Of a stretch of 49,440 nt of DNA, positions 31,343 to 40,850 are shown in pieces. Within the stretch, counting starts at the first letter, position 1; each line of letters starts with the position of its first letter. The position numbers and the translations under genes were made by a program. Source of the DNA: a virus. The DNA lies in the IMG/VR virus record IMGVR_UViG_3300045988_127364, positions 1 to 49,440 of that record; one strand, 5' to 3'. The notes beneath the pieces were generated by a model that saw only the letters and a list, made by a program, of their open reading frames with translations, was not told where the DNA came from and did no database searches.

Positions 31343-32299
31343 CTACTTCGCGTAGAGCTTGCGCCTGATGGCAACGGCGACAGCCTTGTTGGTGTCTGGT
31401 CCCTGCAAGCCGTCGGCGCCGCACGATCCGACCGAGATGCCATGCTCAATGAGCCACAGCTGGTGATGGATGATTGTCCCGCTGCCCATCTGCCTGCTTT
31501 GGATTCCCTTTGGTGGATACGTCTTGAGGCCAATCTTGTGCTGCAGTGCAAGCACCATGTCTGAGCCGACGCCCTTACCGGTCTTTGTCCACTCGACGCA
31601 GCTCTCCGTTGCCCAGAAAGAGCGCTGGTTGCACTCCCACTGGCCGGAAATCACACCGTCGACGGTGGTGCCGAGCTGCTTTTGAAGCGCTCGCGTGAAC
31701 TTGGGCCCCCAGTATCGCGTGTCACCCAAGTCGGGGTCTGTGTTGTCAGCAACCTCCGTGTTGGAGCCGCCGATGGTGCCGCCATCGCCGAGCCAGTACA
31801 GGGTCCCGTCCCACGGGTAGCTGTAATACGGCTTGATGTTGCTCTCTCGTCCGGTCTGGTCGCCCTTGGCGCCCGTGATGGTGCCCTTTTCGCTGATGCT
31901 GAACTGCGCAAGCAGGTCGCCGCGAGCGGAGCCGTAGGGCGAGATGCATACGGCCGTGTGGCAGCGCTTGTTGACGTAGATGTCTCCGCGCATGGCACTT
32001 GCAACGCCCATCTTGCGCCAACCGAAAAGACCAGTCTTGAGCAGCTGTTCGATCATGTTGCCCGTGTACGTCGCGCCGTACGTGTTGACGCCGACGGCCC
32101 TCAGCGCGAGGATGACTGCGGACGAGCAGTCTCGGTCGCCGCCAGCAACCGTAACGGTCGTGCCGTCAGAGAGCTTGATTGTCTCGGTGGTGCCGTCGCC
32201 CATCCTGTTGTACTGCGAGTAGCCGTGACCGCCGTTGCCGTCGTGGGTGACCATGTGCTCGAAAACCTGCGCGAACGCCTCGCGCCTGGTGAGCGCCAT
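31343..32299 (-). CDS. endolysin (peptidoglycan hydrolase with C-terminal cell-wall-binding repeats)
   Basis: 318 aa; two C-terminal repeats (..ALQKQLGTTVDGVISGQ.. and ..VLALQHKIGLKTYPPKG..); adjacent to the holin. Confidence 0.75.
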   Translation of the reverse strand: MALTRREAFAQVFEHMVTHDGNGGHGYSQYNRMGDGTTETIKLSDGTTVTVAGGDRDCSSAVILALRAVGVNTYGATYTGNMIEQLLKTGLFGWRKMGVASAMRGDIYVNKRCHTAVCISPYGSARGDLLAQFSISEKGTITGAKGDQTGRESNIKPYYSYPWDGTLYWLGDGGTIGGSNTEVADNTDPDLGDTRYWGPKFTRALQKQLGTTVDGVISGQWECNQRSFWATESCVEWTKTGKGVGSDMVLALQHKIGLKTYPPKGIQSRQMGSGTIIHHQLWLIEHGISVGSCGADGLQGPDTNKAVAVAIRRKLYAK

Positions 32300-32300
32300 T

Positions 32301-32564
32301 CTATTTGCCCTCAGCCGTGTACGGCTCGTCGTAGCCGAGCGCTCGAGCGGAATCGGACAGGCCGCTCGTGGTCGGGTCGGTCACCACGCCGAGAGCCACG
32401 AGGATGTTGAGGACGATGCCCACGAGCTGCAGGAGCGAGTCCTGCGAGACGGGCGGGACGATGCCGAAGATGCCGCAGAGCTGGTAGGCGAACGCGAGCA
32501 CGGTGGCGGCGAGGGCCGTGAGCGTGGCCTTGTTCTGCAGGCGAAGGGTCCAGTTGATTTTCAT
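32301..32564 (-). CDS. holin (phi LC3-family-like)
   Basis: 87 aa; MKINWTLRLQNKATLTALAATVLAF...TDPTTSGLSDSARALGYDEP. Confidence 0.7.
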   Translation of the reverse strand: MKINWTLRLQNKATLTALAATVLAFAYQLCGIFGIVPPVSQDSLLQLVGIVLNILVALGVVTDPTTSGLSDSARALGYDEPYTAEGK

Positions 32565-32574
32565 GTGTTACCTC

Positions 32575-32886
32575 CTAGTCGGAGCCGCCGACGCCACGGT
32601 GCATGTCGCAGTTGCGCTCCAGGCGCTCGATGCGCGCGAAAAGCGTCGAAATCTGCTCGGTGTGCTTTGCGATAGCAATGCCGTGGTCGTCGAGCTTTCG
32701 GTTGATTTCCTTGATTCCTGACGTGACCTCGCGCATCGACTCGATAAGTGAGTCGAGCTTGTCGTCGGTGTGCTGCTCCTTCGCGGAGCGCGTCTTGGTT
32801 ACGCTGAGCCGCCCGACGCAGAACGTCACGATGACGAAGAAAGCGCTGATGATGGAGGTCGTGTCGCTGACACTCACGGGCGGCAC
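32575..32886 (-). CDS. membrane/coiled-coil protein (possible XhlA-like lysis accessory)
   Basis: 103 aa; N-terminal TM helix then coiled coil; position between the XkdX-like gene and the holin. Confidence 0.35.
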   Translation of the reverse strand: MPPVSVSDTTSIISAFFVIVTFCVGRLSVTKTRSAKEQHTDDKLDSLIESMREVTSGIKEINRKLDDHGIAIAKHTEQISTLFARIERLERNCDMHRGVGGSD

Positions 32887-32996
32887 TAATCCTCCTTGCG
32901 GTTGGCGGCGTCAAGCAGCGCCTGCACCTCTTTGCGCCAGCGCTCGGGGACGCTGTCGATGGTGCGCTTGCCTTTATTCACGGCACGGAAGAACAT
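32886..32996 (-). CDS. XkdX-like small protein (36 aa)
   Basis: MFFRAVNKGKRTIDSVPERWRKEVQALLDAANRKED; position upstream of the lysis genes; too short for the ORF track. Confidence 0.3.
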   Translation of the reverse strand: MFFRAVNKGKRTIDSVPERWRKEVQALLDAANRKED

Positions 32997-33016
32997 CTCC
33001 GCGATAGCACTAGCCA

Positions 33017-33367
33017 CTACTGCTCACCTCCCGCAATCATGTCGCAAATCTCGAGGATTGCCGCGTCATGGATGGCGCTCGTCTCCTCGCATTTCTCGAC
33101 GCGCTCGGCGATCGTCGCATCGTCGTTGACATGCGAATCCCAGAGAGCGTCGAAGCTGTCGGTGATTTCGGCCACGGACGGAGTTCCAGCGACCTTGAAG
33201 TACAGCTCCTCTGCGCTGTAGAACTCGTAACCGGACCCGAGGCCGTTGTCAGCGGTGTCCTTCACGATGTCTCGGCGAAGCCAGACGTGGGAGTAGGGAG
33301 CGCCGTCATCATGCTCGATGCTCACTGCATCGAGCGGGGTGGCAGAGATTGTTTTCACTGCGCTCAT
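33017..33367 (-). CDS. acidic hypothetical protein downstream of the DGR reverse transcriptase
   Basis: 117 aa from an ATG with AAAGGTGGA RBS. Confidence 0.45.
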   Translation of the reverse strand: MSAVKTISATPLDAVSIEHDDGAPYSHVWLRRDIVKDTADNGLGSGYEFYSAEELYFKVAGTPSVAEITDSFDALWDSHVNDDATIAERVEKCEETSAIHDAAILEICDMIAGGEQ

Positions 33368-34451
33368 GCGTCCACCTTTCTTTTCGGGTGTTGTCAGCAT
33401 GAGCATGTGCCGATACGTGTTTCCGCGCGTGCCGGAACGTGGCATCGTATCCGTTTTTCTGCCTCGCCTTGTGCGAGTCCGAGTGCTCCAGGTATCCCCA
33501 GTAGGAACAGACCCTCTTGGCTCCGCGCAGCGTCGGCCTTCGGTCGTAGTCACTGTACGCTTTCCTTATTCTGAGGTACAGGTCGGGCTTTATCGTGACC
33601 CTGCTCGGCCTTACGCTGTTGCTGAGAGCGGCACACGGCTCCTGCTCGCCAGACCTCGCCACCTTCCAGCCCTTGAACTCCAGGCCGTAACCTTCTTTGA
33701 AATACGTACCGAGCGTCCTGACCGCAAGCTCCATGTCGCGCTTGCAGTTGCCGAAGATGAAAAGGTCATCTGCGTACCAGCACTGGTGCTCGATAAGCCT
33801 GACGCTCCTGCCGCGCCTTGTCTTATGTGCGTCCTCCAGGAAGTGGTAGCCGAACGACAGCACGAGCTGTGCCATGCGCAGCGAGAAGTAGCTGCCAATT
33901 TCCAGGCACCCGTCATAGGAGTCGAGCAGGCAGTCGCACAGGTAAAGGACGTCGGCGCTCTTTATGTACTTGCGGAGTATCGACTTGACCACATCGGTCT
34001 TAATGGACGGGTAGCACTTTCGCACATCGACATGCACATGGTACTTGCTGTCGCGCAGATACATCTGGCAGGCGCCGACGAGCATCGGCTGGCCCTTGCC
34101 CATCACGCTTGCCGTCTGCCAGTAGCCCACCTTGGCATCAAGGAGAGGCGCGAGAGCCGTGACCGCGAGGTAGTCGCATGTCTGCTGCTTGACGCTCTCG
34201 ATGCCGATGATGCGCAGCTTGCCGTTGGTAGTCTCGATGTGCCTGTAGCGCCTGATCGGTACGAACGACAGCGACCTCGACTCAATCTCGAATGCGATCT
34301 CGCTGATTAACGCCGACTCGGTGCCGTATTCTTCACACACGCGCCAGCGGTTCTTCTTGCCAGCCTCTCCGCACAGCCAAGTATCGTATGCGGCATGAAT
34401 TAGGGACTCGTCTATGCGGAGTCCCTTGCAGTAGCTTTTTATATAGACCAA
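33309..34451 (-). CDS. DGR-type reverse transcriptase
   Basis: RT motifs HVHVDVRKCYPSI (motif 2, ..SI), IGSYFSLRMAQ (motif 4-like) and QCWYADDLFIFG (motif 5, YADD). TTG start with purine-rich RBS. Located 150 bp from the template repeat. Confidence 0.75.
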   Translation of the reverse strand: MVYIKSYCKGLRIDESLIHAAYDTWLCGEAGKKNRWRVCEEYGTESALISEIAFEIESRSLSFVPIRRYRHIETTNGKLRIIGIESVKQQTCDYLAVTALAPLLDAKVGYWQTASVMGKGQPMLVGACQMYLRDSKYHVHVDVRKCYPSIKTDVVKSILRKYIKSADVLYLCDCLLDSYDGCLEIGSYFSLRMAQLVLSFGYHFLEDAHKTRRGRSVRLIEHQCWYADDLFIFGNCKRDMELAVRTLGTYFKEGYGLEFKGWKVARSGEQEPCAALSNSVRPSRVTIKPDLYLRIRKAYSDYDRRPTLRGAKRVCSYWGYLEHSDSHKARQKNGYDATFRHARKHVSAHAHADNTRKERWTHERSENNLCHPARCSEHRA

Positions 34452-34604
34452 ATCTCTTTCTGGGTGTCACACGAGCAGTCGCCTTGAGGTTACTAGCCCG
34501 TCGGTCTTTTTGACGATTTCACTTAGTTAAGCTAGGCCGATGCCCATCTCGTCCCAGAAGGACGGAGGGTAGTCGCGGATGGAGAAGATGTTGAAAGAGT
34601 AGTC

Positions 34605-34705
34605 CCAGATTGACGCGAGCCGTAGTTCCACCTGGCGTTCGACAGGTCGTTGTTGCCATTGACGTAGCGAAGGCCAGCATAGCCCCTGTTCCTGAGGTTG
34701 CCGAG
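34605..34705 (-). repeat. DGR template repeat (TR)
   Basis: About 101-bp non-coding copy of the 3' end of the receptor-binding gene. It differs from the VR almost only where TR has A on the coding strand. Confidence 0.75.
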
Positions 34706-34801
34706 AAGGAAAGATACGCCCCGTATTCCGCGAATCCCTATTTTCGAGTTCCGATAGTTGCAGAGCTGATTGTAGCATGTGCTACGGACAGCCGAAGTGA
34801 G

Positions 34802-34824
34802 AAAGAGGGGGCTTTTCGCCCCCT
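34802..34824 (-). ncRNA. GC-rich hairpin immediately 3' of the VR (DGR target-recognition hairpin candidate; alternatively a weak terminator)
   Basis: Minus strand AGAGGGGGC-GAAAA-GCCCCCTCT: 9-bp stem, 5-nt loop, beginning 8 nt after the target gene stop. Confidence 0.5.
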
Positions 34825-34832
34825 CTCGACGG

Positions 34833-36413
34833 CTATGCAGCCGCCGATTCACCCCCGGACTGACCGTTGCCAGAAAGACGCGAGCCGCTGCGCCACCAGG
34901 CGTACGACAGGCCGCTGCCGCCACCGACGCAGCGAAGGCCAGCACAGCCCCCGTCCCGGAGGTCGCCGATAGTAAGGCTCTCGCGAGTTCCCGTGACCGT
35001 GTCGGCGTTCTTGTAGACGCCGTCGCACAATCCCGTGGTATCCGACGCTCCGGAGCCGACATGCACCATGGCACCGTTGACGGTCTTGTCGTACAGCGAG
35101 TACTTCCAGCCCTCGGTAGCATCGCCGGGCATATCACCGACGACGACGGCGTTCGCCGGGATGATTCCTGGCTTGTCGTCGGCAGTGCTCTTTGACGCGT
35201 AGATCTTCCAGCCGCCGCCGTCGTTCTTGTACGCGACGTCCTCGATAATCTCGTACATGCCGTGGCCAAGCTCGATACCCTGGATGGTGAACGGCTCACG
35301 GCCGCTCTTGGGGTCGGTGGGCGAGCCGTCTCCAGCGAGTCCGTCGCAGGCTCCCGTGTGCCATGGGCACGTGGAGACGATCATGCCGACCTCGGTTGTG
35401 ATTGGGCCGCAGTCGAGCGTGAGCACGCAGTTGTCCCCGTCGACGGACTTGGAGACGATTCTGGCGGCATCGACGATGTCATGCGCGTTGGTTGCGCCGC
35501 GATCGGGGCTGGCGGTCTTTACGGAGCCGACCATGACCGAGGAGCCGACGGGCCAAGCGGAGACGGAGGACGCGGCGACCGTGACCGTGCTGACGTTCTC
35601 GCCCGCGACGGTGATTGCGGGCTGCTCAGTATGCGCGGTGCATCCGGCAAAAACGCTCTGCGAGTTCTTGGTCGCGTACTTGAGGTCGAACATCCAAAGC
35701 ACGTACATGTGGTCGTAGCGCGACTTGCCGGAATACTGCGCGCCCTTCTTGCGTGTCAACGTGATGACGCTGTCATGGCTAATGAAGCGCTTGACCGGTC
35801 GCTTGGAGATGGATGCCGTGTTGCCAGCGTCATCGATTACGAGCGGGTACTTCGCTCGCAGGATGAACTGTCGCCTATGCTTTCGGTCCGTGAGTCCGTC
35901 AGGCTCAATCGTGTAGCCAGTGGTCTGCGAGTCGCTTACCCAGCGCTGGATGGTGGACTCGCCCTCGACCTCGCGCATGTAGAGCGTCGGGGTCATAATC
36001 CAGACGTCGCCGTTGGAGCCGTCTCGCGCGAAGCGTCCGTCGCCGTTGATTGCGGTGACGTGAGGCTTGCCGACTGCGTCGTAGAAGCCGTTCACCTCCC
36101 AGTAGCGGAACGGCCCGATGCCGAGGTACGGGTCGTTTCCGGCCTTGGCGAACGTGTAGGGCGTAGGCGCGTCGTACTTCGCGTTCTCGCCGAGCTTGGT
36201 TCCCTCGACGGTCTTTCCGGTGGATAACTCGACTCCGTAGGTGAGTCCGTCGCAGCCGGATTCGATCATCGCGGCAACCGATGCGTCGGTGTACCTGTCG
36301 CTGTCATCGTCGAATACGGGTCGCTTGTTGTTCGCTAGCAACTGAATCGACATGGCGATGTCGCCAAGCCCCTCCTTAAGTGTCTCGTCGCTGGCGATGT
36401 GGGTCTTTGCCAT
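34833..36413 (-). CDS. receptor-binding tail fibre protein (DGR target)
   Basis: 526 aa; last structural gene of the tail operon; C-terminal about 45 aa is the VR. Confidence 0.7.
   Translation of the reverse strand: MAKTHIASDETLKEGLGDIAMSIQLLANNKRPVFDDDSDRYTDASVAAMIESGCDGLTYGVELSTGKTVEGTKLGENAKYDAPTPYTFAKAGNDPYLGIGPFRYWEVNGFYDAVGKPHVTAINGDGRFARDGSNGDVWIMTPTLYMREVEGESTIQRWVSDSQTTGYTIEPDGLTDRKHRRQFILRAKYPLVIDDAGNTASISKRPVKRFISHDSVITLTRKKGAQYSGKSRYDHMYVLWMFDLKYATKNSQSVFAGCTAHTEQPAITVAGENVSTVTVAASSVSAWPVGSSVMVGSVKTASPDRGATNAHDIVDAARIVSKSVDGDNCVLTLDCGPITTEVGMIVSTCPWHTGACDGLAGDGSPTDPKSGREPFTIQGIELGHGMYEIIEDVAYKNDGGGWKIYASKSTADDKPGIIPANAVVVGDMPGDATEGWKYSLYDKTVNGAMVHVGSGASDTTGLCDGVYKNADTVTGTRESLTIGDLRDGGCAGLRCVGGGSGLSYAWWRSGSRLSGNGQSGGESAAA
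34870..34970 (-). repeat. DGR variable repeat (VR) at the C-terminus of the receptor-binding protein gene
   Basis: Encodes ..SLTIGDLRDGGCAGLRCVGGGSGLSYAWWRSGSRLSG..; homologous to the TR at 34605-34705. Confidence 0.75.
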
Positions 36414-37150
36414 TAGCTTTCCTCCGTGTCAACTAGGGTCAGGTACTGCGTGTCGCCGACCGTGTCGTAGGTTATGTAGATTTTCTTGTCAGCCGAGATT
36501 GAGCCGCGTGCCTCTTCGGCGGCTTTCAGCGCATCGGTCTTTGCCTGCTCGGCGCCTGCGGCGGCGTTCGATGCCGTGACGGACGAGTCGTTAGCGGAGC
36601 CAGCGGCGGCGTTCGCCTTGCCAGCTGCCTCGTTCGCCGCAGACGCGGCCTTTTCTGCCCTGTCCTTCGACGCGTCAACGGAGGCTGCAGCCGTGTTCGC
36701 CTTTGTTGCGGCGGCGTCGGCCTTCTTGACTGCGGACTCGGCGTTGGTGGCGGCAGTCTTAGACCTCTCGACCGCGTCGGCGCTCTCCTTCTTGACCTGC
36801 TCGAACTTATTGGCAATCTCAAGCTCCGAGTCGGCATAGCTCTGCCTCAGAAGCTCGAGCTGCTTATGCTCCTCGTCGACCCTTCCAATCGCGTCGTCTG
36901 CGCGCTTGGCAGCATCGGTGGCAGGCCGCATCAGGCCAGCAATCTGCTCCTCCGTGAAGTCTCCGTACACGAACGCGTCGCCCTTGAGCGCGACGATTTT
37001 CCAGCTTGCGCTGGGAGGCTGCTCGGTAGTCGGCGAGACGCACATGTAGGAGCTGCCGCCGTGGGACACGACATCGAGTTTGTCGTAGCTGTTCCCGTTC
37101 TGCCACTCGCCTCGGTGGATTACGGCGATTCGCCCAAGGTCTTTAATCAT
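36413..37150 (-). CDS. tail fibre protein with Ala-rich coiled coil
   Basis: 245 aa with a long A/K/E coiled-coil segment; directly upstream of the receptor-binding protein. Confidence 0.5.
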   Translation of the reverse strand: MIKDLGRIAVIHRGEWQNGNSYDKLDVVSHGGSSYMCVSPTTEQPPSASWKIVALKGDAFVYGDFTEEQIAGLMRPATDAAKRADDAIGRVDEEHKQLELLRQSYADSELEIANKFEQVKKESADAVERSKTAATNAESAVKKADAAATKANTAAASVDASKDRAEKAASAANEAAGKANAAAGSANDSSVTASNAAAGAEQAKTDALKAAEEARGSISADKKIYITYDTVGDTQYLTLVDTEES

Positions 37151-37617
37151 CGGTTGTCCCCGCTTTCATAGGTAACGTATCCATGCCCGTCGTCGCCGAG
37201 CGTGAAGTCGATGCTGTCCAGCATGGCCTTGCAGTCTGACCAGACCTTCTCGTACTCGCTCTGGGACGGGTCCGACGGCGCAGGCGCGGTGTCTGCCATG
37301 ACGCGCGGCTCCACAAGCAGCGGCTTGCGCATGAGCGCGTTCGCCACCACGACCGAGTCGCGAGTGCCGATGGCGGTCACATAGACCTGTCCGACCCTTG
37401 CAGTCACCTCAGATGGGACGACATACGCTCCGTCCTCTCGTGCGGCAGGCATGAACTGCTCGCCCGTGGTGCTGGTGAATATGACCCTGATGTCGAGTCC
37501 GTCCCACTCGCCGTCGAATGCAATGGAGATCGCATCTGCGTTGGCGGTGCCCTGCACCAGCCTACGGTCGTCGACGGAGAGCGTCCTGTCGAGGACGGTC
37601 GCGCTGTGGAGCTTCAC
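37147..37617 (-). CDS. tail-associated protein (DFTLGDDGH motif)
   Basis: 156 aa; C-terminal IDFTLGDDGHGYVTYESGD shared with the neighbouring 85-aa gene. Confidence 0.45.
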   Translation of the reverse strand: MKLHSATVLDRTLSVDDRRLVQGTANADAISIAFDGEWDGLDIRVIFTSTTGEQFMPAAREDGAYVVPSEVTARVGQVYVTAIGTRDSVVVANALMRKPLLVEPRVMADTAPAPSDPSQSEYEKVWSDCKAMLDSIDFTLGDDGHGYVTYESGDNR

Positions 37618-37874
37618 TAGTCCACCTCCAGCTTGAGATGCCCGTCGTCGCCGAGCGTGAAGTCAACGGTTCCGTCTCGGAAATAGTTCTTGAGGTTGTT
37701 CACGATGTCCTCGTAGGTCGCCATGCGCTTCACGGAGCCTGCGGCGAAGCAGATGTAGACGGACCTGCCGTCGCTCGCCTCGCTGTCGTCGGACACGACG
37801 ACAGCCCACTCCCCTGGCATCAGCTTTGCCTTGTTGAGGTTCGTGTATGCGCCACGGCGCATCTGGATTGCCAT
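37617..37874 (-). CDS. tail-associated protein (DFTLGDDGH motif)
   Basis: 85 aa; C-terminal VDFTLGDDGHLKLEVD. Confidence 0.45.
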   Translation of the reverse strand: MAIQMRRGAYTNLNKAKLMPGEWAVVVSDDSEASDGRSVYICFAAGSVKRMATYEDIVNNLKNYFRDGTVDFTLGDDGHLKLEVD

Positions 37875-40850
37875 TTAATACCCCCTGTATTGCGGGTCCG
37901 TTGGTGTGTAGTAGTCCCATCCGACGAGCAGCCCCTTCTCGAATGTCAGGACGTAGTCTCGTATGACGTTGTTAAATACGATTGGGATTCGGACCTGACA
38001 GGTCAGCGGGAATCGATCTGTGACTTCCTTGATGAAGTTTTCCCTGTTAAGGAACGAACCGGAACTTTTCTGCGCAATCTCGCCGCCATAGCCGGGAGAC
38101 GAATAGTAGATGTCGATTCCGTTAATGCAGACCCGAACGCCGTTGGCGAATACGCCAACACCAACCGACACGTCATAGCACGGGAGTCCATTGCTGCCAT
38201 ATTCACCAGTTTTTTTCAGCCCGCAATTGACCATGAACGGGTACCCCTGAGAGACGAGCGAGAAGCCAAGCTCACTCTTGTTCGTATCTACTTGATACTT
38301 GATCGGGTTATAGGTTTCACCGAGAACCACCCTCTTGCCGTTGGCATAAAAATCAACCCTCACTCCAATCGCCACGACGATTTTTGAAGAGTCGACGAAC
38401 GCCTGCGCTTTCTCCGTGCACGTAAAGGTATATCCAGGCGGGTTCGAAGCGTTCCCGACCGCCTCCCAGATAGGACTGCCGCCGTCGTCGCACTCGGAAT
38501 ACGTCACCATCTTGTAGTTCTTCGGCTTGATGGTCAGCGCGTCCTGGACACCGCCAGTCATGAACGAGATGCCAGAAGAAGAAACGTTCACGGAATTATC
38601 GTCGTCCCCGATGCTGAGCAGGTTCCTGATTGCGATCAGCTTTGCGTCGATTGACCCGGAGCCGATATAGTCCGCGTTAATGAAAAGCTGGCCGTCCTTT
38701 GTGAACAGACCCTTCACCTTTCCGTTGTCGGTCAACAGGTTGAAAACCTTTTTCTGGTCTAGGCTGTTGACCGTATCAATCGCCTGCTGTGCGTTCGAGC
38801 TTGCCTCAGTGAGGGCCACGTCGTAAACGGGCTGCGTGTACGATTCGCTGCCGTCGCTCCACGTGATATGCAGGCGCTGCCAGTAATAGGTCCCGCCGAC
38901 CCAGCTCGGGACTCCCGTTGACCACGAGCCGCCCGTCGGCGTGTTCGGCGCCCAGCTCAGACAGTATTCTGGCACCGATGACTTGATTCCGCGCCCGTCG
39001 GCGCCAGAGATGCACGCCGGGACTGACTCCACCTGGGAGCCGTCCTGCATCACTGTGATGATTTTGAACCAGATGAAATAGCTGGGGCTTCTCTCTGGAC
39101 ACGCGTCTATCCAGCCGGACGTCGGAGGTATCGTGTTGCTAATCGAGGTAGCGTATTTCATCAAGGTCTTTGCTGCGGCGCTATCGGTGGTCGCGATGTC
39201 CTTGCCGCCGACAGTGGACGACGCACCGAGTTCCAGATTGGCCTCGCCAGTGTCGAGGTCGATGAAGTTGCCGCCCTTCTGGGCACTGATGCGGCCAGTC
39301 TTGATGTAGTTGGCATCTATGCCGATAGCGTAAATCCTGTTGAGAATCGCGTCGCCGTCAGCCGTAAGCCCTGTCGCGTAGGTCTTGCCTGAATCCGTCG
39401 AGATTCCGATACCCTCGGCGGTTATCTTGTAGATAATCCTGGACTCGCCAGTCGTCGGCTTGTCGTGCAGGTAGTAGACGTAGCTGCCGTCGTCCTGCTT
39501 GACCTCGGTGTGGTACATACCCTTTGTGCTTGCAAGCGACTCGCCGAGATTCTTGATGGCAAGGTCCCTGGCGCTCAGCTCGCGCTGAATCTCATTCCTC
39601 GCCTTGACATAGGCAGACGTACTCGCCCCGGCGTTGTCGGCACTGTTGCGGCTGGCGCTCTTGGCTCCGCACGCCACGTCCATGCCGCCGTTGACGGTGT
39701 ACTTCACGCGAGTGACATAGGCTTTATAGACGTTCTGCTTGCGATCGACAACGTATGCGCAGTCCCCGGCCTCGATGCTCGGGACGCAGATGTGCTTGCC
39801 GCTGAACGGGCGGAACCTCATGCCGATGACCTTTTCGGCGATGCGCTCCGCGACTTTACGTCCGTCTCCAGGCAGGATTAGCGGGTTGTTGCTGATAGCC
39901 AAGACATAGCCATCGTTGCCAATCTTGACGGTTTCCCCAGCGACAGTCTCGCTATTCTCTGTGACACTGCGCTCCAACACGCTTACGCCAGTGATTACGA
40001 CGTCATCGGTATTTACAGTGATGCTGCTGAAAGCATAGAGCGTGTGCACCATTCGATTTGCGAAGAAGTCGCCACCATCGACGGAATCTCCGCTGGAGTA
40101 GTCGAGGAAATTGCCTCCGTCCTTGGAAACTCCGGTCGAATACGGGCTGTCGGAGTCGAAAACGCCGCCGTCGCAGCCGTCCTCCGACTCGAAAACCGAT
40201 GTGTCGTACCAAACGGTCCTCAAGTGGCCGTTGTACGTGGCAGATGCGTTGACACAGCAGACCTGGCAGCAGTACGCGAGAACCTGTCGGCACGTCGCGT
40301 TATTGTCGACGTAGCCGAAGTTGAACGTTTCGTCCATCGCCTTGTTGCCGTCATCGTCCCACTTCACGCCGCGATAGCGGCACATCAGGTCTATCACCTG
40401 CCGGATTTGGACGCCACTGTTGAGCCGCAGCTCAGTTGCCTCTACAAACTCGGAGAAAGGCACCTCGAACCTGGAAAGGGTGTCGAGCGCCGAGATTTCA
40501 ATGGTGCCGTTGTAGGCGTCAGGCTGGTTCGCCGTATACAGGCCGCGCTGAATCCACTCGGTTCCGGTCGACAGCTCCTTGCCGACCCACACCTTGAACT
40601 TAGAGTCCGTGAAGTCGCAGGCGTCGAACCTGCCGTCGTGGTTATTGAGCGTGATGTTCATCTGGCCGATAATCGCCGTGCCGATGTCAAACGAGCTGTC
40701 GGACGAAACCTGCTGGTCGAACGAGCAGGAAACGATGTCGTCGCCAGTCAGCTCGCGCACGGTCTTGTCGGCGAAGGCGATTTTCGCCTTGATTAGCTGG
40801 CCGGAATTATCGTTTAGCGACAGCTCGTACTCGCTGCTGATGCTGAGCAT
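37875..40850 (-). CDS. large tail protein (tip/baseplate or endopeptidase-tail type)
   Basis: 991 aa directly after the tape measure and a small tail protein. Confidence 0.6.
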   Translation of the reverse strand: MLSISSEYELSLNDNSGQLIKAKIAFADKTVRELTGDDIVSCSFDQQVSSDSSFDIGTAIIGQMNITLNNHDGRFDACDFTDSKFKVWVGKELSTGTEWIQRGLYTANQPDAYNGTIEISALDTLSRFEVPFSEFVEATELRLNSGVQIRQVIDLMCRYRGVKWDDDGNKAMDETFNFGYVDNNATCRQVLAYCCQVCCVNASATYNGHLRTVWYDTSVFESEDGCDGGVFDSDSPYSTGVSKDGGNFLDYSSGDSVDGGDFFANRMVHTLYAFSSITVNTDDVVITGVSVLERSVTENSETVAGETVKIGNDGYVLAISNNPLILPGDGRKVAERIAEKVIGMRFRPFSGKHICVPSIEAGDCAYVVDRKQNVYKAYVTRVKYTVNGGMDVACGAKSASRNSADNAGASTSAYVKARNEIQRELSARDLAIKNLGESLASTKGMYHTEVKQDDGSYVYYLHDKPTTGESRIIYKITAEGIGISTDSGKTYATGLTADGDAILNRIYAIGIDANYIKTGRISAQKGGNFIDLDTGEANLELGASSTVGGKDIATTDSAAAKTLMKYATSISNTIPPTSGWIDACPERSPSYFIWFKIITVMQDGSQVESVPACISGADGRGIKSSVPEYCLSWAPNTPTGGSWSTGVPSWVGGTYYWQRLHITWSDGSESYTQPVYDVALTEASSNAQQAIDTVNSLDQKKVFNLLTDNGKVKGLFTKDGQLFINADYIGSGSIDAKLIAIRNLLSIGDDDNSVNVSSSGISFMTGGVQDALTIKPKNYKMVTYSECDDGGSPIWEAVGNASNPPGYTFTCTEKAQAFVDSSKIVVAIGVRVDFYANGKRVVLGETYNPIKYQVDTNKSELGFSLVSQGYPFMVNCGLKKTGEYGSNGLPCYDVSVGVGVFANGVRVCINGIDIYYSSPGYGGEIAQKSSGSFLNRENFIKEVTDRFPLTCQVRIPIVFNNVIRDYVLTFEKGLLVGWDYYTPTDPQYRGY

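Follow-up and report, generated by a model that had tools for sequence, protein, structure and literature searches.

Efficient homing in phage BPP-1 depends on an inverted repeat located after the VR (PMC3240598). Hairpins of this type have a 4-nt GRNA loop and are located 4-34 bp from the VR, homing in BPP-1 is abolished when 2 nt are added to the hairpin loop, and a parallel with group IIC introns was already drawn for the BPP-1 hairpin by Guo et al. (PMC3240598). The MyDGR rule specifies a stem of 7-10 bp, a 4-nt GRNA loop and a distance of 4-34 bp from the VR (PMC6602519), and GC-rich inverted repeats, mostly without terminator signatures, were reported after the IMH in 34% of 372 DGRs (PMC5758913). 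The step by which DGR cDNA reaches and enters the VR has yet to be explained (PMC12875486), and target-side signals have so far been defined only from one phage, BPP-1.

The window (the whole 49,440-nt stretch of viral DNA analysed here) contains a DGR cassette on the minus strand. TR/VR comparison identified a VR (34870-34969, minus) at the 3' end of the target gene and a TR (34605-34704, minus), which are 100-nt repeats with 80% identity and have 19 of their 20 mismatches at TR adenines. The target gene (34833-36413, minus) encodes a tail-associated protein of 526 aa that matches phrog_17147 (1.7e-75) and also the tail protein phrog_5302. The reverse transcriptase (RT) gene (33309-34451, minus; 380 aa) adjoins the TR, its ORF starting 154 nt beyond it, and was recognised by a PHROG reverse transcriptase match (E = 1.9e-35), the match to Pfam RVT_1 being weak (25 bits, under the cut-off). 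A 116-aa ORF in the gene calls overlaps the 3' end of the RT gene. No Avd-like family (Pfam, PHROGs) was found in any ORF between 31.3 and 40.9 kb, and the intervals between VR, TR and RT are too short for an additional gene. There are 340 homologues of the RT, and most of the 80 related viral loci that were retrieved by means of an alignment of these homologues have a TR/VR pair upstream. Among the VRs of five near-identical relatives, 21 of 26 variable columns fall at TR adenines. The DGR of the window is genuine, and its adenine-directed TR/VR differences indicate that it has been active in the past.

A GC-rich hairpin downstream of the VR, here called hairpin B (AGAGGGGGC-GAAAA-GCCCCCTCT; 34804-34826, minus), was delimited from sequence, folding and conservation. 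It consists of a 5' arm AGAGGGGGC (34826-34818), a 5-nt loop GAAAA (34817-34813) and a 3' arm GCCCCCTCT (34812-34804), which make nine perfect Watson-Crick pairs, seven of them G-C. Folded as DNA it has a predicted stability of -11.4 kcal/mol (z = -5.4, with 0 of 200 shuffles as good), and folded as RNA in a 91-nt context it has a z of -5.0. The initial annotation had described this 9-bp stem and GAAAA loop, which indeed lie inside the interval 34795-34835 that it gave, and it had also noted a weak U-tract, in agreement with a tail of TTCTCACTTC (CUCUUUCUC with the final stem bases) at which a terminator scan made no call. The placement that it gave needs correction: the hairpin starts 6 nt rather than 8 nt after the stop codon (TAG, 34835-34833), and it is not immediately 3' of the VR, the TR/VR homology ending at 34870, 43 nt upstream of the hairpin start at 34826.

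The 6 nt between the stop codon and hairpin B (34832-34827) form the 3' arm of another hairpin, which is absent from the initial annotation. This hairpin A (T-CGGCGGCT-GCAT-AGCCGTCG-A; 34826-34847, minus), identified by folding and by covariation in the family, has nine pairs, of which one is G.T, and A34826 is common to it and hairpin B; in the window the target stop codon lies inside hairpin A, straddling loop and 3' arm. Directly 5' of hairpin A is a conserved single-stranded motif, GGGGTGAA (34848-34855, minus), and between this motif and the end of the TR/VR homology is a VR-specific spacer, CAACGGTCAGTCCG (34856-34869, minus), in an IMH-like position according to comparison of the TR and VR flanks. 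Hairpin A is 22 nt from the homology end. The elements form a three-part module in the order GGGGTGAA, hairpin A and hairpin B, the last with the form (A)GAGGGG-loop-CCCCT(C), of which the window has one copy with a chance expectation of 0. Hairpin B is one part of a three-part module and not a stand-alone GNRA hairpin of the BPP-1 type. The flank of the TR is unrelated to that of the VR and has no counterpart of the CAACGGTCAGTCCG spacer; a different conserved motif, AGGGATTCGCGG, adjoins the TR and pairs with sequence after it.

The module was then followed through related phage DGRs. A hairpin with the arms (A)GAGGGG and CCCCT(C) is kept at this position in relatives with as little as about 30% RT identity; conservation in related phages was a check that the initial annotation had suggested. 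Of the 84 loci fetched, 67 have a single copy of the module, located in every case directly 3' of the VR; the 84 comprise 80 loci from the RT search and, for the two closest relatives, 4 duplicates. When viral contigs were scanned with the module pattern as the only query, the matches were almost all DGR VR ends among the matches listed, of which 103 loci had enough flank; 86 of these have an adenine-biased TR on the same strand, downstream of the module, and 79 have an RT. Among the same listed matches, the median spacing between homology end and GGGGTGAA is 16 nt, and hairpin B and the TR are 22 to 526 nt apart, with a median of 50 nt. Where VR and TR are widely spaced (163-526 nt), the module remains beside the VR; thus, it accompanies the VR and not the TR. 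Its orientation is fixed in viral loci, the G-rich arm always being 5' on the sense strand. In the family, the target stop codon is found before, inside or after the module, and because GGGGTGAA is not tied to one codon phase, all three being represented, and can precede or follow the stop, the constraint on the module is at the level of nucleotides and not of protein. Three loci of the scan (L099, L124 and L127) have long ORFs that end in the module, and their fetched flanks contain neither a TR nor an RT.

No real case of two modules in one locus was found, and no second VR copy was found in the TR-bearing loci of the motif scan (L085-L203). No multi-VR locus that would have allowed a check of whether each VR has its own module was found in this RT clade; the two-target phages nd4 and nd12 (PMC10743442), considered for this purpose, lack the module and differ in the order of their cassette. 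In Hankyphage p00, too, the VR is not followed by the module. Among annotated phages, a nucleotide search with the 3.1-kb cassette gave a single weak match of 82 nt and a search with the 44-nt module gave none, while tblastn of the RT against phages matched only four unannotated gut phages. No description of a conserved GGGGTGAA or double-hairpin signature was found in the DGR papers searched, and literature searches with GGGGTGAA or GGGGTGAAT returned nothing relevant.

The two hairpins are conserved in different ways. For hairpin A, a perfect stem of at least 5 bp is present in 73% of distinct modules compared with 3.4% when intervals are shuffled, and its arms occur as 51 distinct sequences. 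RNAalifold and pair counts, applied to an alignment of 66 sequences, gave compensatory changes in all six modelled pairs of hairpin A and a covariation score of 0.557 compared with 0.155 in shuffles (equalled in 0 of 500) and 0.09-0.17 in slid controls. Its loops are mostly C-GNA-G or C-GNNA-G in the family, although not in the window (GCAT). These loops belong to an extraordinarily stable DNA mini-hairpin motif (PMC13037366, PMC3201870), which points to a structure formed at the level of DNA. For hairpin B, 49 of 62 modules have a Watson-Crick match at the innermost pair that varies (20.9 expected), and the family core, GAGGGG...CCCCTC, is invariant; since this core never varies, a sequence motif and a structure are indistinguishable for most of its pairs. 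The loops of hairpin B are 3-8 nt long, mostly 4 nt, and have no consensus. Among the five near-identical relatives the stem is invariant but there are four different loops (GAAAA, GAAAAA, GGAAAA and GGCAAA), and in the four closest relatives the loop has 6 nt and differing sequences. To judge from these alignments, selection appears to keep the G-rich and C-rich stem sequence of hairpin B and not its loop.

The same module grammar was also encountered outside phages, as a multi-copy intergenic repeat of Rhodobacterales that accounts for 90 of 121 genome matches. Hairpin A has at least 5 bp in 84 of these 90 copies, with 57 distinct arm sequences. The copies occur within operons and in either orientation, and no RT was found near any of the 90 in the fetched 8-kb loci. 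This repeat behaves like a REP family. The window module is not of this repeat type, being single-copy, linked to a VR and devoid of the AAATATCC flank of the Rhodobacterales repeat, with which it has only the core grammar in common. As the Rhodobacterales copies have no RT in the loci fetched, the module is not exclusive to DGRs, and its use or its recognition may be part of something broader.

Hairpin B is probably the second, VR-distal half of a two-hairpin cis element that lies on the target side of the DGR, just 3' of the VR, and aids homing. The module would act on DNA and raise the efficiency of homing. In the mechanism envisaged, the sense strand downstream of the VR would become single-stranded or be extruded from supercoiled DNA, so that the two abutting hairpins could fold; once folded, they would mark the VR rather than the TR as recipient and prolong the accessibility of the VR, allowing adenine-mutagenised, TR-derived cDNA to anneal and be incorporated. 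Experiments on BPP-1 have demonstrated this role for the single GC hairpin that follows its VR (PMC3240598). By position and loop type, hairpin A would be the counterpart of the BPP-1 hairpin and hairpin B an extra hairpin specific to this clade.

Three other functions were weighed against this role. Hairpin B could be an intrinsic (Rho-independent) terminator of the tail/target transcript, the TR and RT then being expressed from a promoter just downstream. The GC-rich 9-bp stem, 6 nt past the stop codon (an interval filled by the hairpin A arm) and followed by TTCTCACTTC, has the appearance of one, evidence of post-VR terminators exists for a minority of DGRs (Wu et al., PMC5758913), and an extended -10-like box, TGCTACAAT (34777-34769), is upstream of the TR and invariant in five relatives. 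The combination of a partially T-rich tail and downstream TGCTACAAT is found in the window and four close relatives, but the terminator scan passed over a site with fewer than five T in an 8-nt window, a sigma-70 scan called no promoter near hairpin B (the TGCTACAAT box having been found by eye only), and a relative whose RT is 66% identical has ATATATACAT as its tail. Among the matches listed, at least five T in 8 nt were counted in only 12 of 103 tails, so termination is not the conserved role of hairpin B. In many loci no more than 22-60 nt separate hairpin B from the TR; there is then little room for a separate promoter, and expression of the TR would need read-through; moreover, holin and endolysin genes lie farther downstream on the same strand, and termination would leave the conserved stem sequence, GGGGTGAA and hairpin A unexplained. 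A terminator is thus quite improbable, and the judgement of the initial annotation that a DGR cis element fits better is upheld, the hairpin being kept at VR ends where T-rich tails are rare. A somewhat less improbable, though still unlikely, alternative is that the module acts in RNA, as a 3' stabiliser of the target mRNA or as the 5' boundary of the TR-containing DGR RNA (a cDNA stop, protection or processing site). Since hairpin B is often near the TR (median 50 nt), a role in that RNA may exist; the fixed orientation with the G-rich arm 5' on the sense strand would suit it, as would the lack of a detectable avd between VR and TR, by which the RNA upstream of the TR would begin in or near the module, and a motif upstream of the TR stops reverse transcription in BPP-1 (PMC12875486). 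Nevertheless, the module stays beside the VR when the TR is 163-526 nt away, AGGGATTCGCGG adjoining the TR is a better candidate for an RNA boundary, the C-G-closed GNA triloops favoured in hairpin A are specially stable in DNA, the Rhodobacterales copies are in either orientation relative to flanking genes, and no Rfam family matched the module in the window region or the Rhodobacterales loci. The third function would be a protein-binding RNA site with a GNRA-like pentaloop resembling lambda boxB. The GAAAA loop is identical to that of lambda nutL boxB, but it varies among near-identical relatives and has no family consensus, and the end of a late structural gene is unlike the location of a nut site; this candidate was rejected as extremely improbable.

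It is also conceivable that the module comes after target genes by chance and has no specific role in homing, being instead a mobile or REP-like repeat or a site for a general host factor. The multi-copy, intergenic Rhodobacterales repeat of the same grammar, inside operons in both orientations and with no RT in the 8-kb loci, would be in keeping with this; the viral contigs, however, have a single copy per locus, directional and at near-constant spacing to VR 3' ends, with a TR in 86 of 103 among the matches listed, and linkage to VRs across RTs only about 30% identical would be unexpected of a selfish repeat. Chance placement is therefore very unlikely. A bolder proposal, and on present evidence a rather doubtful one, is that the module is a single-stranded DNA recognition site, specific in both sequence and structure, for a putative factor common to phage DGR targets and Rhodobacterales repeats; this DGR clade would then locate or open its target by hairpin-plus-guide targeting like that of REP/RAYT and IS200/IS605. 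No transposase, RAYT or intron was found beside the module. If such a factor existed, the missing step of DGR cDNA integration would be identified.

As a target-side element that probably aids homing, the module is of practical interest. It is a nucleotide-level and easily searched marker of VR ends across a large phage DGR clade, for which a module rule improves on the BPP-1-derived rule of a 4-nt GRNA loop at 4-34 bp. It offers mutational targets in GGGGTGAA, in the stem and loop of hairpin A, and in the stem versus the loop of hairpin B, as well as an alternative minimal target tag for engineering DGRs for in vivo mutagenesis, and the unexpected Rhodobacterales repeat is a lead towards a recognition factor. 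Hairpins or inverted repeats after the VR were already known in DGRs; judged at the level of sequence, the signature of a double hairpin with GGGGTGAA appears to be new.

Compared with BPP-1, the module is similar in that a GC-rich inverted repeat comes shortly past the stop codon of the target gene and is missing after the TR. Hairpin B (9 bp, -11.4 kcal/mol) and the BPP-1 hairpin (8 bp, -12.2 kcal/mol) are alike in stem and stability, and on the sense strand both have the G-rich arm at the 5' side (GCGGGGCC-GAAA-GGCCCCGC in BPP-1, AGAGGGGGC-GAAAA-GCCCCCTCT in the window). The initial annotation had gone further, matching hairpin B to the BPP-1 geometry with a GNRA-type loop, and this part does not stand: BPP-1 has one hairpin with a strict 4-nt GRNA loop and a free stem sequence, whereas the window has two abutting hairpins after GGGGTGAA, and in hairpin B it is the loop that is free, without family consensus, and the stem sequence that is kept. 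Measured against Guo et al. (2011) and the MyDGR rule, hairpin B has the GC-rich stem of 7-10 bp and the position after the VR and not after the TR, but its 5-nt GAAAA is not an exact 4-nt GRNA loop and its 43 nt from the VR exceed 4-34 bp; the BPP-1 position is matched instead by hairpin A at 22 nt, which in relatives of the window also has a G..A loop. The GC-rich inverted repeats of the DGR surveys (PMC5758913, PMC6602519) belong to the same class of feature, although the MyDGR rule would miss hairpin B. Intrinsic terminators are alike in having a GC-rich stem-loop soon after a stop codon, and unlike in that the module has an inadequate U-tract and conserved flanking motifs. The stem-loop targets of group IIC introns and the hairpin-plus-guide sites of REP/RAYT and IS200/IS605 are similar as DNA hairpins accompanied by a single-stranded motif, and by analogy only, their strand-specific recognition, variable stem and short conserved single-stranded neighbour may be paralleled in the module at VR ends.

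On the minus strand, the sequence following the variable repeat (VR) of the diversity-generating retroelement (DGR) reads ...TCTGG CAACGGTCAGTCCG GGGGTGAA T-CGGCGGCT-GCAT-AGCCGTCG-A GAGGGGGC-GAAAA-GCCCCCTC-T TTCTCACTTC... and contains two hairpins. The hairpin reported in the initial annotation (hairpin B) consists of a 5' arm (AGAGGGGGC, 34826-34818), a loop (GAAAA, 34817-34813) and a 3' arm (GCCCCCTCT, 34812-34804), all on the minus strand; the 9-bp GC stem and 5-nt loop that had been described are present in the sequence, and all nine pairs, of which seven are G-C, are perfect. Its DNA folding energy is -11.4 kcal/mol (z = -5.4, equalled by none of 200 shuffles), and RNA folding in a 91-nt context gave z = -5.0. 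The target ORF (34833-36413, minus strand) ends in a TAG codon at 34835-34833, so that hairpin B starts 6 nt past the target stop, not 8 nt as first annotated. The tail after hairpin B is TTCTCACTTC and the site was not called by a terminator scan, in agreement with the weak U-tract initially noted. Folding placed a second hairpin (hairpin A, 34847-34826, minus strand; T-CGGCGGCT-GCAT-AGCCGTCG-A) directly against hairpin B, with the target stop codon within its loop and 3' arm, and the motif GGGGTGAA (34855-34848, minus strand) directly 5' of it. The GCAT loop of this hairpin A is atypical for its family, and its stem contains one G.T pair; at that wobble (34829) the four closest relatives have A in place of T, giving a G.A mismatch.

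The DGR context of hairpin B is real. Comparison of the two repeats placed the VR at 34870-34969 and the template repeat (TR) at 34605-34704, both on the minus strand, with 80% identity and TR adenines at 19 of the 20 mismatches. The sole non-adenine difference (VR A at 34889, TR T at 34624) falls in a TR TAC codon whose adenine is also altered. The reverse transcriptase (RT) ORF (33309-34451, minus strand) matches a PHROG reverse-transcriptase family (1.9e-35) and has hundreds of homologues; the DGR target is a tail-associated protein, and holin and endolysin genes lie further downstream on the same strand. No avd-like gene was found by Pfam or PHROGs in 31343-34451 and 34833-40850, and the VR-TR-RT intervals leave no space for an accessory gene. 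An ORF of 116 aa (approximately 33017-33367) that overlaps the RT 3' end, called as a gene in relatives and without a family match, could encode an unrecognised accessory protein. Another of 83 aa (34527-34778, minus strand), which spans the whole TR in a frame other than the VR-equivalent frame and is called as a gene, without a family match, in one relative, is probably spurious. TR/VR homology ends at 34870, directly after TCTGG, and hairpin B is therefore 43 nt from the VR end and does not adjoin it. The TR is bracketed by an inverted repeat (34727-34738 and 34568-34579; on the minus strand, GGGATTCGCGGA upstream and TCCGCGACTACC downstream), which in the DGR RNA probably pairs at long range into a helix that closes the TR; relatives with RT identities as low as approximately 53% share the TR-side motifs AGGGATTCGCGG (upstream) and CCGCGACTACCC (downstream). 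Two relatives, L205 and L206 (86% and 92% RT identity), are prophages in bacterial scaffolds of 74-91 kb, each with an RNase J gene after the endolysin gene; this gene, the Phage_holin_1 holin and the approximately 58% GC content point to a Gram-positive gut host.

Conservation of the hairpin in related phages, proposed as a check on the initial annotation, was found. From an alignment of 38 RT homologues, 80 viral loci were retrieved, and wherever TR and VR could be called, with RTs as distant as approximately 30% identity, the region after the VR was tripartite: GGGGTGAA(T), a hairpin of locus-specific stem sequence, and (A)GAGGGG-loop-CCCCT(C), the counterpart of hairpin B. A relaxed pattern of this module occurs once in the window (0 expected) and once per locus in 67 of 84 loci, always on the RT strand just 3' of the VR. 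In the reverse test, viral contigs were scanned with the motif alone; of 103 listed loci with sufficient flank, an RT is present in 79 and an adenine-biased TR, downstream and in the same orientation, in 86 (among the matches listed), which makes the module in viral sequence almost diagnostic of VR ends in DGRs. The homology end lies at a tight distance from GGGGTGAA (median 16 nt), and hairpin B at 22 to 526 nt from the TR (both among the matches listed), the module keeping to the VR where VR and TR are widely separated; the TR 3' flank is unrelated to the module, which belongs to the VR side and not the TR side. At three loci (L099, L124 and L127) long ORFs terminate in the module and no TR or RT was found in the fetched flanks. 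No multi-VR DGR of this clade was found among the fetched loci.

Hairpin A was not demanded by the motif scan of viral contigs, so its test is unbiased. Of the 104 distinct modules listed, 73% have a perfect stem of 5 bp or more, versus 3.4% of shuffled intervals, and the arms comprise 51 differing sequences. In an alignment of 66 distinct modules, nearly all TR-linked and picked regardless of hairpin A, RNAalifold recovered both hairpins; pair counts on this alignment gave 94.5% of cells paired (70.8% in shuffles) and a covariation score of 0.557 (0.155 shuffled, reached by 0 of 500; slid controls, 0.09-0.17); compensatory changes were observed at all six hairpin A pairs. The loop is GNA or GNNA closed by C-G in 49 of 85 cases, and C-G closure of any loop is found in 74 of 85 (among the matches listed).

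Hairpin B follows a different pattern. Four G-C pairs of its core are invariant in the 66-module alignment, and the first inner pair that varies is of Watson-Crick type in 49 of 62 modules (G-C 21, C-G 18, A-T 10) versus 20.9 expected, which indicates that hairpin B, too, is a structure, one whose stem sequence is conserved. The loop of hairpin B is 4 nt long in 63 of the 104 modules listed, ranges from 3 to 8 nt and has dozens of sequences, GAAA appearing twice and GAAAA once. Five near-identical relatives have the loops GAAAA, GAAAAA, GGAAAA, GGAAAA and GGCAAA on an invariant stem. Nowhere in the VR-TR spacer do these near-identical phages vary more than in this loop (34813-34817; compared with L001, L002, L205 and L206), for which the five sequences show four versions that also differ by 1 nt in length; an extruded or single-stranded state that exposes the loop may account for the variability. 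The VRs of these five differ at 26 columns, 21 of them at TR adenines, consistent with DGR activity in lineages with 5-nt and with 6-nt loops. A boxB-like reading of GAAAA was rejected, as the loop differs among near-identical relatives and has no family consensus.

We consider it fairly probable that hairpin B makes up one half of a DNA signal on the target side, in which hairpins A and B together would mark the VR as the target and raise homing efficiency. Hairpin A would fill the place of the hairpin of Bordetella phage BPP-1, the prototype, and hairpin B would be a second hairpin, particular to this clade, whose recognition depends at least in part on sequence. The module is not a coding constraint: target stops (among the matches listed) precede GGGGTGAA in 27 modules, are a TGA inside it in 6, lie in the 5' arm, loop and 3' arm of hairpin A in 1, 20 and 15, and fall in hairpin B in 2 and beyond the module in 4, and GGGGTGAA is seen in all three codon phases. 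Nor is it a conserved terminator; tails with at least 5 T in 8 nt follow hairpin B in only 12 of 103 cases (among the matches listed), and the TR often starts 22-60 nt past it. That hairpin B is purely a terminator is quite doubtful, although in this phage and its close relatives a partial T-rich tail and an invariant TGCTACAAT box leave room for a secondary role. This extended -10-like box (34777-34769, minus strand), 27 nt past hairpin B and approximately 65 nt before the TR, is unchanged in five close relatives, lies within a stretch of approximately 60 nt that is absent from more distant ones, and was not called by a promoter scan because it has no -35. Action of the module at the RNA level is unlikely.

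The remaining alternative, a repeat independent of DGRs, is very improbable for the viral modules, but a DGR-only reading is tempered by a repeat of the Rhodobacterales. Scanning bacterial and archaeal genomes with the same pattern gave at least 121 matches, and 90 of the 121 listed are one element of Rhodobacteraceae, Paracoccaceae and Roseobacteraceae with a common extra flank, ...AAATATCC(T)CG, ahead of GGGGTGAAT. Among the matches listed, the covarying hairpin A reaches 5 bp or more in 84 of these 90, with 57 distinct arms and mostly GCA or GAA loops; the GAGGGG...CCCCT hairpin comes next, and T-rich tails are nearly lacking (3 of 90). No RT was found near these elements in the fetched 8-kb loci; RT matches in the genome scan occur only at three DGR-type loci, L223 (Alistipes onderdonkii), L288 and L296 (among the matches listed). 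In annotated replicons the element occupies gaps between genes that share an operon, in both orientations, as in the iolD/iolC interval and in that separating kdgD from an aldehyde dehydrogenase gene. Several genomes carry multiple copies, and at one locus an inverted counterpart of the AAATATCC flank is present. The element was seen in genome loci (L207-L326) and plasmid loci (L327-L329), and the viral orphan loci L102, L129 and L140 are of this type. No Rfam family match and no description in the open-access literature were found for it; it behaves like REP-type repeats. Its likeness to the DGR module may stem from shared ancestry, from recognition by the same factor or from convergent evolution. 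A conserved and searchable module with such a counterpart offers a way into the problem of how DGRs recognise their targets.

Efficient homing in BPP-1 depends on a 24-bp segment that follows the VR and holds 8-bp inverted repeats; the stem can vary in sequence, and the 4-nt GAAA loop is constrained in sequence and size (PMC3240598). In related phage DGRs the stems measure 7-10 bp, the loops fit GRNA and the hairpin lies 4-34 bp from the VR (PMC3240598), a rule encoded in the annotation tool MyDGR (PMC6602519). Of 372 DGRs surveyed by Wu et al., 34% had GC-rich inverted repeats after the IMH, the site at the VR 3' end, and only a minority showed signatures of a terminator (PMC5758913). In a 2026 reconstitution, deletion of the stem-loop cut editing severely without abolishing it, and the stem-loop was proposed to prolong the single-stranded state of the target, the lagging-strand template being preferred (PMC12875486). 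No description of GGGGTGAA or of a double-hairpin signature was found in the open-access literature. The initial annotation preferred a DGR cis element to a terminator, a choice favoured by the linkage to VR ends and the scarcity of T-rich tails; the BPP-1 geometry that it proposed, with a GNRA loop immediately after the VR, does not hold for a hairpin at that distance whose 5-nt loop is free in the family. The family's C-G-closed GNA and GNNA loops of hairpin A are the GCGNAGC / GCGNNAGC motif of extraordinarily stable DNA mini-hairpins (PMC13037366, PMC3201870), from which the GCAT of the window deviates. BPP-1 itself (...CTGATTCTTGAG TAG CGGGGCC-GAAA-GGCCCCG CC...) has a single hairpin at the stop codon, approximately 25 nt past a GC-rich block and without GGGGTGAA. 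By the same measure this position is matched by hairpin A, 22 nt past the homology end, whereas the BPP-1 stem composition is resembled by hairpin B, in which the BPP-1 rule is inverted: the stem sequence is conserved and the loop is free.
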